From positions 25,258,809 through 25,322,808 of the forward strand of contig NC_057719.1 of NCBI RefSeq assembly GCF_004010195.1: 64,000 nt of DNA, in the 5' to 3' direction. The DNA comes from Chiloscyllium plagiosum. Taxonomy: Eukaryota. Positions 19,526-49,470 of the stretch are shown here, in pieces; positions within the stretch are counted from its first letter, which is position 1; every line of letters begins with the position of its first letter. The translations under genes were made by a program, and so were the position numbers. The notes beneath the pieces were generated by a model that was not told the origin of the DNA, searched no databases, and saw only the letters and a program-made list of their open reading frames with translations.

Positions 19526-20124
19526 TCATGGTCAGTCTTCTAAAACAGAGGTGGTGAAATCTTGAGTCTTTGGAACTCATCCTGAAAAATGTGACAGAAG
19601 CAGTGTCCTTAAATATCTATTTATAAGGCATAGGTAGATTCTTGTTGAGAAAGGGGTTTGTAAAGTATTGGGGGTAGGTAGAAGTGTAGATTTAAGGCAA
19701 CCATCAGATAGGCCATTAATTTATTGAATTTCATAGCAAGCTCAAGGGGCTGATTGGCCAAATAATTTTATCAGATTGACCACTGAAGCGCATCAGAGCA
19801 CCACCACAATTGTTAAAAGTATCTGAATTTTCATCAGGTTGATCAATTGCAAATTTGCAACTTTGAATATGCTCTTCTGCACATCAGAGTGATATTATTG
19901 CTGATGCACAAAGAGTATGTTGAAGGTACAGAGGACCAATGACCATGTAGTCTCCTTTGTCACAATATACATAGATAATGTGACATCTTGCCTTGGATTT
20001 TCTCTTCAAAGAGCCAAAACTGTTTGATGAAACTGGGTGCAAGATTTGCTGAAAGGTTTGCTCAAAACTGGGCCCTCTCTCCTACAAGCATTTTCTGATA
20101 AAACTATGCAATCTTCTTTTACAG

Positions 20125-20223
20125 ATGAGAGAATTTGTTCCCCTCCCTTTATGGAGCTCAGCAGTCAGTGTGGGGAGGACACTTTGGCAGAGATTACGAA
20201 GCACAAGCTGACATTCCCATTCA
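20125..20223 (+). CDS. ITPK1: ITPK1 coding exon (99 nt, phase 1-1), DERICSPPFMELSSQCGEDTLAEITKHKLTFPF
   Basis: Acceptor tcttcttttacAG, donor GTAAGT at 20224. In frame with the previous exon; matches ITPK1 RICSPPFMEL...LTFPF. Confidence 0.96.
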
Positions 20224-22286: not shown

Positions 22287-22808
22287 AGTATTTTGAACAG
22301 ACCTAATGACAGACTGCTAGGACACTGGGTTAGTATGTAGCAAGAAAACAAACATAGTGTACTTTATAAGTAAACAATCTATTCAAGGAAATAATTCAAA
22401 TCTAGCTGTAAACTTACTTTTGTTTTATTTACTCTGAAAGTGCAGCAAAATTTGGTGTGTTCTCAATGCCCTCCACTGTACAAACCTGCTGACCTGTATT
22501 TTGGTGTTGCATATAGTCATTATGCCAAGGAGCCCTGGCCTTTGGTATGATCACAAAAGCTAAATTCCTCTGATACTTCATTCCTTTGAATAGTGCAATA
22601 TTGTCTCACTCATGATCAGTATTATAAAAAGGCATTGGGAGCGTTTAGAGAATAGAAATACAGAATTGCGTGGGTATTCATTGAAGAGAGAATAAACAAA
22701 CTATATTTTTTAAAAAAAAGGATTTGGAGGTGCTGGTGTTGGACTTGGGTGTACAAAATTTAAAAATCACCCAGTACTAAGTTATAGTCCAACAGGTTTA
22801 ATTGGAAG

Positions 22809-22843
22809 CACTAGCTTTCGGAGCGCTGCTCTTTCGTCAGGTG
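22809..22843 (-). ncRNA. Minimal type I hammerhead ribozyme motif (PLE type)
   Basis: Minus strand CAC-CUGACGA-AAGAGC-AGC-GCUCC-GAA-AGCU-A-GUG. Core CUGANGA/GAAA/UH is intact, stem I is CAC/GUG, stem III is the palindrome AGCU, with one mismatch at the base of stem II. Confidence 0.62.
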
Positions 22844-22874
22844 TTTGTGGAGTAACATAAAATACCTCCACAAT

Positions 22875-22909
22875 GACCTGATGAAGGAACAGCGCTCTGA
22901 AAGCTAATG
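22875..22909 (+). ncRNA. Minimal hammerhead ribozyme motif, partly decayed stems
   Basis: GAC-CUGAUGA-AGGAAC-AGC-GCUCU-GAA-AGCU-A-AUG. Core intact; stems I and II carry mismatches. Confidence 0.55.
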
Positions 22910-23129
22910 CTTCCAATTAAACGCGTTGGACTATAGCCTGGTGTTGTGAGTTTAACTTTTTTTAAAAAAAGGAGGCTGTGGGATAACTTTTTAAAATGTG
23001 TTTTAAAATTTGAGTGGTTTTGATAGAGCAGATACAGAGGAAATGCTTCCTCCTGTGGTGAAAAAAACATGATTAGAGACCCAATAACAAGAGTAAAGTT
23101 GGCATAGTCTTAGGGGACCACTGCTCCTT

Positions 23130-23450: not shown

Positions 23451-23974
23451 CCACTCTTCCTCCCCCTTTCCACCCACCAGCCCTTACAAGGTAGTCACCA
23501 AGAAATCCAGTTCAGAATTCAGGGGGGAAAAAAACCTACCTCACCTGAAAGAGTGGTGCGAATGTGGTGTATGATGGAAGTGAACACTGTAAATGCACTT
23601 CACGGGAAATTAGAAAAAACATAGATGGCCAAAGGGATAGAGAGTAATGGTTGAAGGTAAGATGAAAGGATTGCAAATAACAACCGTACCTGATTGGGCT
23701 GAATGGCCTGTTTCTCATACTTTTTTGGGTTATTTCTACAGTTTAAGTAATATGTGCTGGTTCTGTGTAGCCACATATTGTACAACTGAGATATTGTTGG
23801 CCAAACTATAATGGACCAAAGTTTTATGCTTTGATTTACACAATGGTCATTGTTTCTGCAATTAAAGCTACACTCATTTAAAAACCACTTCAGAGGATGA
23901 GGCATGGGGCAGTTTCTCAGGCCGTTCTCTTGGTCACTCTATACGTTTTAACGTTACCCTGTTTCTTTTCATAG

Positions 23975-24015
23975 TTTGCAAAACCAGAGTGGCACATGGC
24001 ACCAACTCTCATGAG
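23975..24015 (+). CDS. ITPK1: ITPK1 coding exon (41 nt), ICKTRVAHGTNSHE
   Basis: Acceptor gtttcttttcatAG, donor GTGAGT at 24016. Too short for the ORF track; peptide matches the conserved ITPK1 motif. Confidence 0.96.
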
Positions 24016-24369
24016 GTGAGTGACAACACACAGGATTTGTAAGAAATAACTTTGTTACACTGAGACCCATTTTCCTTGGAAAAAGTTGCCTTTCCACTAT
24101 GTTTACATACATATCTGTACCATTTGGAAACTGAAATATTCTGGTTACCTTTCTTTGAATAATCTATATTTGATGCACTTGATTCTTATATTTAATTTGT
24201 GAAGAGTTTATTGCTTCTAACTCCGTGATATGTGAGAGACAAGTCTATTTTCTTCTTTTGTTCAAAGCATTTCAATAAGATCTATTTTTATGTTGGTGGA
24301 CTTTGAGATTTTTATTAACACAGTTTCTGACTCACTTTTGGAAATCATTCTGTTACGAAAAGCTACAAA

Positions 24370-24968
24370 CATTCAAATAAAAACTGAAAATGCTGAAAAA
24401 ACTCAAAGTCTGGTCTGGCAGCATCTGTAGCGAGGGAAACCAAGTTAGCATTTTGAATCTGATTTGACTCTTCAGCCGTATCAGACTGGAAACCTTATCT
24501 CTGTTTCTCTTGTAAAAGTTTACAAAATCACGAGGGGCATGGATAGGGTGATTAGTCAAGATCTTTTCCCCAGGCTAGGGAGTCCAAAACTAGAGGGTAT
24601 GGGCTTAAGGAAAAAGGGTTGAGATTTAAAAGGGCCTTAAGGGGTAATGTTTTCATGCAGAGGTTGGTGCATGTATGGAATGAACTGCTTAAGGAAATGG
24701 TGGAGGCTGGTGCAATTACAATACTTAAAAGGCATCGGGATGTGTGTGCGAATAGGAAGTGTTTAGAGGGATATGGGCCAAATGCTGGCAAATGGGACGA
24801 GTTGAGATTAGGAAATCTGGTCAGCATGAACGAGTTAGACCAAAAGATCTGTTTCTAGGCTGTACAGTTCTTTGGCTCTCCTCCAATGTTGCCAGACCTG
24901 CTGAGTTTCTCCAACACTTAAAGATTTTTATTTCAGATTTCCAACATCTGCAGTATTTTAGTTTTAAT
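24370..24968. mobile_element. Penelope-like family A hairpin split by a CR1 3' fragment (about 24512-24875, +)
   Basis: Left arm at 24370-24470; the right arm resumes at about 24876 (GTTGCCAGACCTGCTGAGTTTCTCCA); CTACAAA on both flanks. The inserted CR1 reads RFKRALRGNVFMQRLVHVWNEL plus 3'UTR. Confidence 0.7.
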
Positions 24969-27039: not shown

Positions 27040-28100
27040 ATGCCATGCTTTAAAATGTCCCACAGGGCTATTATAAAATACAATATGATATTGAGCCAAA
27101 TAAGTCAGGTGATCAAAAGTTTATCAAAGAGGTAAGGAGTGTCTGAAATGGAAGAAAATGAGGGGCAGAGCTGCAGGGAGGAAATCTCCGATTAGGGCCT
27201 ACGTATTGGAAGACCCAACCATCGATGGTGGAGTGATTTAGAATTTCGTAGTATGGGAAAAGGCCCTTCAAGTCCAGGGCTCAGATGCTAATAAAGCCAG
27301 TATTACACCAGAAACGGAAATTGCTGGAGAAACTCAAATGGTCTGGTAGTATCTGTGGAGAGAGAAAGTGTCAACATTTCTGGCCCAGTGACCCTTCTTC
27401 AGAACTGTTTTTGTTTCAGATTTCCAGCAACTACCATTCTTTTGGTTTCACAATTAGATCAGCTTAATTTCAAACTATTCCCAGGGAGAAGAATGAAGTT
27501 GGTGGCAAGGAATAGAATTTAGAGCAATGTTCAAAACTACTGATTGCTAACTTCCCAATATTTCATTCAAGGATATTCCTAACCATTCAGCACTCAACAC
27601 TGGGGGGGAGAGAGAGATAACGGCGAGGTAGATCTTCAGGTTATCAGTGTATAAGCAAACATTATCACTTTCAAATGATGTCATTGAGAAACAGAATGTG
27701 TCTCAATGGAAATAAGAGGTGTTCCAAGGATTGGTCCTTGGGTACACCAGAGATTATGGAAAAAATGCAGGAGGAGAAACCAGTGCAAGTGATTCTCAGG
27801 TGTATTTAAATGGAGAAGGATTAAAGCATGGAAGAGCAGTCCCACTCAGCTGGATGACAAATAGAGGCAGGTTGAAAGGGGATGATGTGGTCAACCATGT
27901 CAAAAGCTGTCAACTGGTCTGAAAGCTGAGAAGGGACAGCTTTTCATTGTCATAGTGAGATAAGATGTGATTTGTGGCTTTAGAAAAGAGACATTTTAGT
28001 ACGGTGCTGAGGTAATTATCGAATTAGAGGGATTGAAATGTGGGAGCTGCATGAAAGATGGTCACAGATTTGGGAGGTGATCGCACATTCAAGGACCTTC
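27040..28100 (-). mobile_element. Old L2-like LINE fragment
   Basis: Degenerate L2-type 3' end (GGTGATCAAAAGTTTATCAAAGAGG..., complement of the 43700-43925 type end) and RT-region remnants. Confidence 0.5.
27305..27450. mobile_element. Penelope-like family A element with near-intact hammerhead motif on the minus strand (27370-27406)
   Basis: Minus strand GUU-CUGAAGA-A-GGGUC-ACUG-GGCCA-GAA-AUGU-U-GAC. Confidence 0.68.
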
Positions 28101-30257: not shown

Positions 30258-30358
30258 CATTCAAAAACAAAAATTGCTGGAGTAACTCGGGTCTGGTCGT
30301 GTCAGTGGAGGGAAGACAGCGTTAACATTTTGAGTCGTGTGACCCTTCTTCAAAACTG
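30258..30358 (-). mobile_element. Penelope-like family A single arm
   Basis: TTGCTGGAGTAACTC...GTTAACATTTTGAGTCGTGTGACCCTTCTTCAAAAC, with a decayed hammerhead core. Confidence 0.6.
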
Positions 30359-30399: not shown

Positions 30400-33300
30400 A
30401 AAATAATCATCTAATTCCCCTTGGAATGCCTCAATTGAACTTCCCTCCTGGCAGGACATTTCAGACCTGCACCACTCATTGTGTGAAAATTCTTTTCTCA
30501 CATTACGTTTCCAACATTTACAAATTATTGTAAATCAGTGCTGTCTTGTTCTTGATTCTTTTATAAATGGGAACTGTTTCTTTCTATCTGCTCTATCCAT
30601 ACCTCTTGTGAATTTGAAAACTTCTATTAGGTCTCCTCTTAGCCTTTGCCTCTCAAAGCAAAACAGTCTCAACTTCTCCAACCTCACACTCAAAGTTTCT
30701 GATAGAGTCATAGAGATGTACAGCATGGAAACAGACCCTTCAGTCCAACCCGTCCATGCCGACCAGATATCCCAACCCAATCTAGTCCCACCTGCCAGCA
30801 CCCGGCCCATATCCCTCCAAACCNNNNNNNNNNNNNNNNNNNNNNNNNNNNNNNNNNNNNNNNTGAAAAAGTTGCCCCTTAGGTCTCTTTTATATCTTTC
30901 CCCTCTCACCCTAAACCTATTCTCTCTAGTTCTGGACTGCCTGATCCCAGGGAAAAGACTTTGTCTGTTTATCCTATTCGTGCCCCTCATAACTTTGTAA
31001 ACCTCTATAAGGTCACCCCTCAGCCGCCGACTCTCCAGGGAAAACAGCTCCAGCCTGTTCAGCCTCTCCCTGTAGCTCAAATCCTCCAACCCTGGCAGCA
31101 TCCTTGTAAATCTTTTCTGAACCCTTTCAAGTTTCACAACATCTTTCTGATAGGAAGGAGACCAGAATTGCACGCAATATTCCAACAGTAGCCTAACCAA
31201 TGTCCTGTAAAGCCGCAATATGACCTCCCAACTCCTGGACTCAATACTCTGACCAATAAAAGAAAGCATACCAAACATCTTCCTCACGATCCTATCTACC
31301 TCCGACTCCACTTTCAAGAAGCTATGAATCTGCACTCCAAGGTCACTTTGTTCAGCAACACTCCTTAGGACCTTACCATTAAGTGAGTAAGTCCTGCTAA
31401 GATTTGCTTTCCCAAAATGCAGCACCTCACATTTATCTGAATTACACTCCATTTGCCACTTCTCAGCCCATTGGCCCATCTGATCAACATCTCTCCTGCA
31501 CTATCTCCATTGCATTCACATACTTCCTATGGTGTGGCACCCAGAATGATACACAGTAGACTAGCTGAGGTCTAATAAGTGTCTTGTGTAAATTAAGCAA
31601 TACTTCCTTGCTCTGTGCCCCTATTAATAAACACAGGATACCGTGCACCTTATTAACTGCTCTCTCCCTCTATCCTTTAACATTTAGTGATCTGTGCACA
31701 AATACAACCAAATCCCTCTGCACATTCTTAATTATAGAACATAGAAACATAGAAGAATACAGCGCAGTACAGGCCCTTCGGCCCTCAATGTTGCACCGAT
31801 CCAAGCCCACCTAACCTACACTAGCCCACTATCCTCCATATGCCTATCCAATGCCCGTTTAAATGCCCATAATGAGGGAGAGTCCACCACTGCTACTGGC
31901 AGGGCATTCCATGAACTCACGACTCGCTGAGTAAAGAACCTACCCCTAACATCTTTCCTCATCCGATCTTCCTTCCATACCAGGCAACATCCTGGTAAAC
32001 CTCCTCTGCACCCGTTCCAGTGCCTCCACCTCCTTCCTATAGTATGGCGACCAAAACTGCACACAATATTCCAGATGCTGCCGTACCAGAGTCTTATACA
32101 ACTGCATCATGACCTCAGGACTCCGGAACTCAATTCCTCTACCAATAAAAGCCAGTACGCCATATGCCTTCCTCACCGCACTATTTACCTGGGTGGCAAC
32201 TTTCAGAGATCTGTGTACATGGACACCAAGATCCCTCTGCTCATCCACACTACCAAGTATCCGACCATTAGCCCAGTACCCCATCTTTTTGTTATTCTTC
32301 CCAAAGTGAATCACCTCACACTTAGCTACATTGAATTCCATTTGCCACCTTTCTGCCCAGCTCTGCAGCTTTTCTATATCCTGCTGTAACCTGCCACATG
32401 CTTCCTCACTGTCAACAACTCCTCCGGCTTTCGTATCATCCGCAAACTTGCTCACCTAACCTTCTAACCCCTCTTCCAGGTCATTTATAAAAATGACAAA
32501 CGGCAATGGTCCCAAAACAGATCCTTGCGGAACACCGCTAGTGATGGCACTCCAAGATGAACATTTGCCATCAACTACTACCCTCTGTCTTCTTCCAGCC
32601 AGCCAACTCCTAATCCAAACCTCCAACTCACCCTCAATGCCATACCTCCGTATTGTACCTTGTATTTTATATTGTCTTTAATCCTACCAAAATGCATCAC
32701 CTCATATTATTATGCATTGAACTGCATTTGCCACCTAACCACTAACTTCACAAACTTGTCAATGGCTTTTTGGGAGTTCTACACTGTCTTTCTCACAGTT
32801 TACAATTCTTCCAAACATTACATCTTCCACAAACTGTCCCATGAACACGAAGATCTAGATTGTTAACACAAATTGGGAAAACCAAGGATCCCAATACCAA
32901 CTCTGGGGAAGTCCGATAAGTCTTCCTTCAGTCTAAAAAAAAATCCATTAATCACTATTCTGTTTCAAATTACTTGGCCAACTTTGAATTGACATTGTTA
33001 CTGTTCTTTTTTTTTTATTATTACATGAGCTGTAACATTTCTCTGAAGTTTGTTGTGTGGCCTTATGAAAGTGCATGTGTACACAGAGCAACATTACCCG
33101 AATCAATCCTTTCTGTTTTTCATCAGCAAGTTACCCCTTTATAAATCCATGCTGGCAAGTCCTAATCCACCTGTCTTTTCATTGTGACTACTAATTCTAT
33201 TCTGAATAATTGTTTCCAGAAGGATCCCTGCCAGTGAGGTTCAACCGACTGCTTATCAAGAAACTATCTAACTCAACCCTAAAATTATTCAAAGACTCTG

Positions 33301-44897: not shown

Positions 44898-45129
44898 GTG
44901 AAAGTGAGGACTGCAGATGCTGGAGATCAAAGTCAAGATTAGAGTGGTGCTGGAAAAGCACAGCAGGTCAGGCAGCATCCGAGAAGCAGGAACATAGATG
45001 TTACAGGCAAAAGCCCTTCATAAGGAATAGAGGGAATCCTGATGAAGGGCTTTTGCCCAAAATATCGATTTTCCTGGTCCTCAGATGCTGCCTGATCTGC
45101 TGTGCTTTTCCTGCACCACTCTAATCTTG
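44898..45129. mobile_element. Penelope-like inverted-repeat element, family B, with decayed hammerhead (45035-45070, +)
   Basis: About 95-bp inverted arms; AATC-CTGATGA-A-GGGC-TTTT-GCCC-AAAATATC-GATT; flanks TGGCCTGATTCTTG/TGGCCTAATTCTTG. Confidence 0.8.
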
Positions 45130-48907: not shown

Positions 48908-49125
48908 GAGTTAAAAATCACACAACACCAGGTTATAGTCCAACAGATTTAATTGGAAGCTGCTCCTTCATCAGGTGATTGTGGAGTGCACAATTGTAAG
49001 ACACAGAATTTATAGCAAAAGTTTATAGTGTGATGTAACTGAAATTATACATTGAAAAATACCTTGATTGTTTGTTGAGTCTCTCAAATGTTAGAATGAC
49101 CTTGATAGTTTCGCTTCTTTCATAT
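48908..49125 (-). mobile_element. Penelope-like family C arm plus adjacent element body
   Basis: TTAAAAATCACACAACACCAGGTTATAGTCCAACAG...GCTGCTCCTTCATCAGGTG matches 22760-22850; an internal deletion removes the GAAA half of the core. Confidence 0.7.
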
Positions 49126-49470
49126 TCAGAATAGTGAGTTTAATGGTGAAATTTTTAAAAATCTTACTGGAGGAGCAGACTCCTAAGTCAGAACATGCCT
49201 GGCCTTGCCCCTCATGTCACATCGGAGTGACACGCATTGAGTGGATGTCTTCTTGGGGGCATTCACAGGGAAACCCCATGCCTGTCAGTGCTTGGCCTCA
49301 CACCCCTACATCGCATCTGAATTACACACATTGAGTGGGTGTCGACTTGAGTTAACTGTTTGCTCGCCAAACAGCCTTGTTAGTGAGAAAAAAACTTCTC
49401 AAAAATCTTTTTTTGGTTTTTGAAGCTTTTTGGTTTTTGGGTGTTCGGATAAAGGATCTTCTACCTGTAC
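49125..49470. mobile_element. Possible Tigger/MER2-like DNA transposon fragment
   Basis: Right end CGGATAAAGGATCTTCTACCTG|TA resembles a pogo TIR; internal ~55-bp direct repeat. Confidence 0.4.

Follow-up and report, generated by a model that had tools for sequence, protein, structure and literature searches.

A head-to-head pair of hammerhead-bearing end pieces in a shark ITPK1 intron, likely derived from a Penelope-type retrotransposon, and poly(A) joins in related copies

Results and Discussion

The element and its ITPK1 setting

The window analyzed in this study is a 64-kb stretch of Chiloscyllium plagiosum DNA. The element described here sits in an intron of ITPK1, a plus-strand gene, between exons near 20100-20222 and 23962-24021 (both on the plus strand, approximate tblastn limits); a 54-aa ITPK1 exon query was 100% identical to several shark ITPK1 proteins. 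The element spans 22723-22956 (234 bp), and its inverted repeat consists of two 88-nt arms, 22765-22852 and 22866-22953, which are 81% complementary and have 13 nt between them. A direct repeat of 17 nt with one mismatch, a low-complexity T/A run, flanks the element at 22706-22722 and 22957-22973. It outscored 149 of 150 random controls, a result to be read with its low-complexity sequence in mind, and is likely a target-site duplication. No empty site for it appeared among the DNA contigs of three organisms. An earlier note on this DNA had described a ~234-bp inverted repeat within a ~16-bp direct repeat; the 234 bp hold for the element and the flanking repeat is 17 nt long, while the inverted part is limited to the arms.

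The two ends of the element differ. About 40 nt at its left end have no partner in the right arm, and the left arm extends 35 nt past the end of the right arm as a one-sided tail (22723-22757, minus strand). This tail has an A+C content of 74% and, by prediction, pairs back onto the arm (z -2.7, 2 of 200 shuffles). The rest of the left arm (22758-22852, sense on the minus strand) is a 5'-truncated end module. It is followed by a non-palindromic centre of 13 nt (22853-22865), close to locus-specific, and by a right arm without a tail (22866-22956), which is sense on the plus strand, that is, in ITPK1 pre-mRNA. The hairpin predicted for the whole element has a free energy of -133.9 kcal/mol (z -16, 0 of 200 shuffles), far beyond chance. 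Neither the tail nor the poly(A) site reported below was part of the earlier description.

Counting this element, 14 loci of three families occupy about 3.4% of the window, all in ITPK1 introns, and two of these loci are probably halves of one element. The earlier count of about 13 relatives in three families therein is borne out, and just one other locus belongs to the family of the element, family A. This second copy (48911-49150, minus strand, 5' limit set by eye) is a single arm with no tail and a longer 5' extension, and a 17-nt deletion runs through its GAAA and cut site. Another untailed single arm lies at 30262. Two-armed window copies with both ends readable have exactly one tailed arm (7 of 7, by eye). 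Flanking repeats of 10-18 nt were found in four of six window copies, two of them (10 and 14 nt) with scores inside the range of chance; of the two remaining copies, one lacks a credible repeat and the other was left unparsed. Tailed arms of family C are all sense on the plus strand, the direction of ITPK1 (6 of 6, window 1634-51085), and those of families A and B are sense on the plus strand once and on the minus strand three times, which are small numbers.

Hammerhead motifs

Both arm sequences quoted in the earlier note were found in the window where it had placed them, one on the minus strand at 22809-22843 and one on the plus strand at 22875-22909. The first is a minimal type I hammerhead motif with C3 at 22840 and a predicted cut between 22812 and 22811; it was the only match of a strict minimal-hammerhead scan of the window (mean 0.01 and maximum 1 in 100 dinucleotide shuffles). 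The second, with C3 at 22878 and a predicted cut between 22906 and 22907, was recognized by its core and failed the stem I test of the strict scan. The core of CUGANGA, GAAA and UH is thus present in both arms, as had been claimed, and both have lost structure-critical pairs which the family majority keeps. In the minus-arm motif, the G10.1-C11.1 pair is replaced by an A.C mismatch. In the plus-arm motif, two of the three stem I pairs are broken and stem II has a mismatch and a wobble. Stem I of these hammerheads is only 3 bp long, and the damage in both arms is uncompensated. Family-majority letters restore pairing at 22832 (G10.1, 97% of depth in run X1) and, in the plus arm, at 22889 in stem II (83%) and at 22907 and 22875 in stem I (79% and 89%). 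Judged by these letters, the hammerhead is intact in the family majority and damaged in both arms of the 22723-22956 copy.

The check with covariance models proposed in the earlier note gave no match in either arm. The Rfam hammerhead models had no match at gathering score in the window and none at E<=10 in 22600-23100, where only hairpin-type miRNA models appeared at E<=10, far below threshold. A model of our own, R1, built from 70 hammerheads of the comparator loci introduced below, found neither arm at E<=10, while its two true hits (E 0.12 and 0.64) lay among chance hits; its stem II and III columns were fixed by the search motif, so we count this as a failed test rather than as support. 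Stem I covariation was strong in the comparators (0 of 500 shuffles), a result which does not extend to family A, where only the restoring majority letters were seen.

Since the arms lie on opposite strands, any transcript has one of them in sense, and in ITPK1 pre-mRNA the antisense arm is transcribed first. In the full hairpin, the predicted probability of the hammerhead stem pairs is below 1e-6 on both strands, and that of the arm-arm pairs is 0.95-1.0. A same-sense partner for a dimer is absent, as the arms are opposed and mutually paired and the 48911 copy lacks GAAA. Both damaged motifs are predicted not to fold, and this copy is most likely silent.

The three families, represented by the motifs at 45034-45071, 27368-27407 and 22809-22843, differ in the letters of stems I and II and of the palindromic stem III, with pairing kept; that is, ITPK1 carries three separate hammerhead lineages. 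The arm-by-arm comparison of hammerheads excludes three left arms with misplaced anchors (B left, C8058 left and B22151 left). In one subfamily of the reads described next, the eight letters directly upstream of stem I, at 22842, are complementary to the cut-site region and could form an inhibitory fold.

The family in DNA reads

DNA contigs from three runs of three organisms were aligned to 22450-23100 at 80% likeness (15,278, 25,765 and 24,959 contigs). Summed depth over the arms was 2.6-6.4 x 10^5 times that of the flank, which gives an order of magnitude only and not a copy number. With apparently about 10^5 copies, the family fits the earlier suggestion that such motifs may be very abundant in shark pre-mRNAs. 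The centre, in comparison, has a depth of only 1-6 times that of the flank. Contigs exit into mixed flanks at 22721 (148, 373 and 444 in the three runs), at the left copy of the likely target-site duplication, and at 22760 (144, 301 and 318). These loose ends give the family two 3' ends at a distance of about 39 nt, the tail forming the outer one and untailed ends being about as common as tailed ones. Exits are also frequent where stem I has its 5' edge, at 22843 (123, 256 and 229), and the cut site is unmarked among the contig exits listed (960 further ones exist).

Joints between arms differ mostly in their breakpoints among the 15 listed (170 further), and one of them, 22831-22876 in run X18, has a depth of 511, about 20 times the single-copy level. 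The left arm shows about 10 listed differences from the family majority over 90 nt. In all three organisms, which are related, contigs cross from the flank into the element, so that this insertion is common to them and old.

A likely poly(A) site in the family

The RNA data come from one single-cell poly(A) run, of which about 2% was analyzed, and include 2,910 family reads, 1,931 of them first mates. More than half of the family reads (1,524) contain oligo-dT runs, which directly precede 22782 in 907 reads and 22785 in 617, on the minus strand. A genomic A run at some copy could be another source of such joins; at both positions, the DNA contigs continue as family sequence. The joins lie 15 and 12 nt behind a poly(A) hexamer, AUUAAA (22797-22802, minus strand), which reads AAUAAA in about half of the family depth (22801 A>T, 53% in X1). 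This hexamer lies 9 nt past the predicted hammerhead cut and GU/U-rich sequence comes next. A hexamer, a spacing of 12-15 nt and GU/U-rich sequence behind are the standard layout of a poly(A) site. The site lies 25-60 nt upstream of both 3' ends of the family. A candidate hexamer is also found in the right arm in the sense of ITPK1 (AUUAAA, 22916-22921, plus strand), likewise with GU/U-rich sequence behind it.

No RNA reads lay on the flanks of the element and most family reads were less than 95% alike to it, which shows that they come from other copies than the one at 22723-22956; none of the RNA data sets listed contained the locus itself. Reads pass uncleaved through the cut site, have mixed letters and continue upstream in three different ways, which implies a contribution of at least three copies, and one of these continuations matches window positions 48989-49004. 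Read ends do not pile up at the hammerhead cut in this poly(A) library, in which a 30-nt product would hardly show, and this absence therefore says nothing on cleavage. These findings indicate that the family likely supplies transcript ends in related copies, and it may be a donor of poly(A) sites. This class of motifs does not have the hexamer as a general feature: it follows the hammerhead in 7 of 114 comparator matches and precedes it in 6, and in families B and C no hexamer was seen behind the hammerhead (by eye).

Link to Penelope-like elements

The earlier note had suggested a search for linked GIY-YIG/RT Penelope ORFs, and none was found within the window. Among 317 frames of the window with a length of at least 55 aa, Pfam detected no GIY-YIG domain and gave only ITPK1, sub-threshold noise and weak RVT_1 matches; we take the latter to be pieces of CR1-type LINEs. 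A tblastn search of the window with 30 comparator proteins returned nothing. A 25-nt stretch of the arm had no matches in metagenome, prokaryote and viral contigs, nor did a degenerate family-A motif in prokaryote contigs.

As comparators, we used DNA of other animals found in metagenome contigs (123 stretches, of which 122 were read); they were collected with a motif of the family B/C type, not A. A same-strand protein match was found upstream of the hammerhead in 36 of 100 comparator matches and downstream in 1 of 100. This count covers the 100 of 128 matches with 290 nt of upstream sequence and leaves out two proteins which read through a non-coding repeat (P0133 and P0134); the unfiltered value of 54 of 122 loci is inflated. 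[quoted passage not shown] Comparators also form short tailed palindromes with flanking repeats of 9-20 nt. A one-sided excess is seen in 8 of 10 picked loci, the exceptions being L056 and L112. Among the centres, that of L039 is a perfect palindrome and that of L084 a short overlap.

One comparator, L040, contains a decayed Penelope-like frame at 57-2440 with RT motifs, a CxxC linker and a GIY-YIG-like motif (by eye). This frame lies upstream of a hammerhead with AUUAAA about 20 nt further on, a layout like that of family A.

Origin of the element

Insertions of endonuclease-bearing Penelope-like elements (PLEs) share with the shark element the head-to-head arms, a tail of 30-40 nt at one end, the target-site duplication, 5' truncation and an A/T-rich target (PMC3846280; PMC8557442). 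In the account of Arkhipova 2013 (PMC3846280), the arms are head to head, one inverted pLTR bears a tail of 31 bp and the duplications measure 8-10 bp; Craig 2021 (PMC8557442) describes a tail of 30-40 bp. In contrast to these insertions, the shark arms are cut to about 100 nt, have no linked ORF and apparently amount to roughly 10^5 copies. A second close system is PAc (Frangieh 2024, PMC11167929), a Poseidon element from Anolis carolinensis. In PAc, too, a tail within a predicted AC-rich stem-loop has an end on either side, the target is A/T-rich and DNA copies keep the whole uncleaved hammerhead. For PAc, two RT starts bounding the tail and AT-rich cleavage are reported; both strands are cut and extended, uncleaved RNA is the main template and the choice of start site did not differ between the strands. 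The PAc ORF starts in stem II, whereas the ATG in the hammerhead core of the shark element meets a stop after eight codons.

The metazoan PLE hammerheads of Cervera and De la Pena 2014 (PMC4209133) have the same core with an extra nucleotide that separates position 9 from 10.1, a palindromic 15.2-16.2 and, as in the shark family majority, G10.1-C11.1. They are mostly solo motifs, and opposite-strand pairs about 100-700 bp apart are described. The shark element differs in its stem I of only 3 bp and in the decay of both arms, and sharks are not named in the portion of that paper considered. Non-LTR retrozymes (PMC7229834; bioRxiv 10.64898/2026.07.22.740005) are also ORF-less, carry type I hammerheads and have been traced to PLE pLTRs, yet they are head-to-tail tandem repeats which give circular RNA, while the shark element is a dispersed head-to-head pair. 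Head-to-tail tandem hammerhead units were absent from the window, which speaks against a non-LTR retrozyme.

The element is likely an old head-to-head pair of end pieces of about 100 nt from a Penelope-type retrotransposon. The insertion matches Penelope-like elements in its hammerhead repeat, its tail at one end, the two 3' ends of its family, an inverted copy with a variable junction and an A/T-rich duplication. The one-sided tail, the two 3' ends, target duplications of varying length and the near-locus-specific centre all point to the Penelope type of insertion, and we regard it as quite probable that two such pieces lie head to head in a 17-nt target duplication, probably from one insertion event, with damaged hammerheads. 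This is the published insertion form of PLEs (head-to-head pLTRs, tail and target-site duplication), not a palindrome moving as a unit. Assignment to Penelope rests on the architecture and the motif class and not on a parent ORF.

How the mirror arm arose is less certain, and a two-nick route may be its source. A Penelope RT/GIY-YIG protein would nick both strands of the A/T-rich target about 17 nt apart, and each nick would prime reverse transcription at one of two starts, tailed or untailed, in the A/C-rich stem-loop. Both cDNAs would copy uncleaved RNA to just 5' of the hammerhead, and repair would join them. As PAc shows no difference in start site between the strands, such priming would give one tail in just half of the pairs and thus needs coordination. 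A fold-back mechanism of the same Penelope-like origin, in which the first cDNA or an antisense template primes itself near the hammerhead and copy-back stops about 35 nt short, would yield the single tail of all seven window copies without such coordination. Its antisense-template version has been proposed (Arkhipova 2013, PMC3846280), and the comparator centres L039 and L084 are in keeping with it. However, the 22706-22973 copy has a 13-nt centre that is not a palindrome, and the untailed single arms at 48911 and 30262, together with the frequency of untailed ends, indicate that reverse transcription can start independently at the inner end, as it does in vitro (PMC11167929). We consider fold-back a conceivable but somewhat doubtful source of the mirror arm.

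The earlier note had proposed an ORF-less, ribozyme-bearing, non-autonomous palindromic retroelement, which can be read as a unit transcribed and re-inserted by means of its hammerheads. Its ORF-less, retroposed and very abundant nature and a minimal type I hammerhead of Penelope-like kind are retained here; a unit with two working ribozymes is not, given the low depth of the centre, the lost pairs and the hairpin. A master transcribed towards the tailed arm would also produce one tail per copy, non-autonomous derivatives of PLEs are on record (bioRxiv 10.64898/2026.07.22.740005; PMC8557442), and the deep X18 joint suggests that a few palindromes may have been re-copied. Movement as a unit is nevertheless improbable, since the centre is near single-copy depth, many breakpoints occur among the joints listed, hammerhead pairing is negligible in the hairpin on either strand and single arms and 5'-extended copies end at the same positions. 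That the element has been domesticated and serves ITPK1 as an intronic ribozyme or hairpin is still less probable: the insertion is common to three organisms, its hairpin is strong and an intact AUUAAA lies in the sense of the gene, yet the majority differences of the left arm and the non-compensated stem hits are those expected of neutral decay. A miniature inverted-repeat DNA transposon would also be short, ORF-less and present in high copy number with inverted arms. The asymmetric ends with a one-sided tail, the single arms, the varying centre and the presence in the arm of a used poly(A) site together with the core of a hammerhead leave it hardly credible, and the flanking repeats, long and variable in both window and comparators, contradict the fixed short duplication which the earlier note had named as grounds for such a transposon.

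To return to the insertion of Penelope-like end pieces, both start sites lie downstream of the poly(A) site, and a polyadenylated full-length RNA would therefore retain its start structure only in the 5' repeat. Priming there would give short run-off cDNAs, which would explain the mass of stubs. Retroviral LTRs have their internal poly(A) site upstream of the RT start, and priming in the 5' repeat yields short run-off minus-strand strong-stop DNA. An LTR-like repeat may have given rise to the stubs as strong-stop-like cDNAs. We tentatively propose that the terminal repeat, with its ribozyme, used poly(A) site and two RT starts, works like a retroviral R-U5. Polyadenylation would shift priming to the 5' repeat, strong-stop-like cDNAs would integrate singly or as one-tailed pairs and the 10^5 stubs would form a stock of poly(A) sites, from which the hammerhead 9 nt upstream could cut off the tail. 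This is a working likeness only, as there is no tRNA primer site and no integrase, and nicked target DNA would serve as primer instead. In other PLEs, transcription is reported to start within the 5' repeat (PMC6765202; PMC2377424; PMC8557442).

The single locus matters little, being a decayed insertion of a described kind. The Penelope insertion architecture and abundance in shark introns are already in print (PMC8557442; PMC3846280; bioRxiv 10.1101/443036), the last of these reporting a Penelope-like expansion in whale shark introns. What is new is the poly(A) joins just behind the ribozyme in related copies, upstream of both element ends. A literature search that left subscription papers mostly outside its scope turned up neither hammerhead palindromes from sharks nor any PLE hammerhead followed by a poly(A) site, and the string 'polyadenyl' does not occur in the main text of Frangieh 2024 (PMC11167929). 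The joins suggest why stubs are so numerous and how the family could shape shark transcript ends. If the R-U5-like reading is true, the 10^5 stubs are ready poly(A) sites genome-wide which already end transcripts from several copies. The family is in any case a very large natural data set on the origin of the mirror arm and tail and on the role of the hammerhead in Penelope biology.

Other repeats in the window

Further repeats were noted in the window. At 24373-24966, a family C element is seemingly split by a LINE fragment of about 350 nt. The 40 N letters of the window all fall within 30407-31000, inside a LINE fragment. A SINE-like repeat with about ten window copies is preceded at 855-1290 by an inverted copy of its own 3' end, and the two arms (863-952 and 1177-1266) are 91% complementary.
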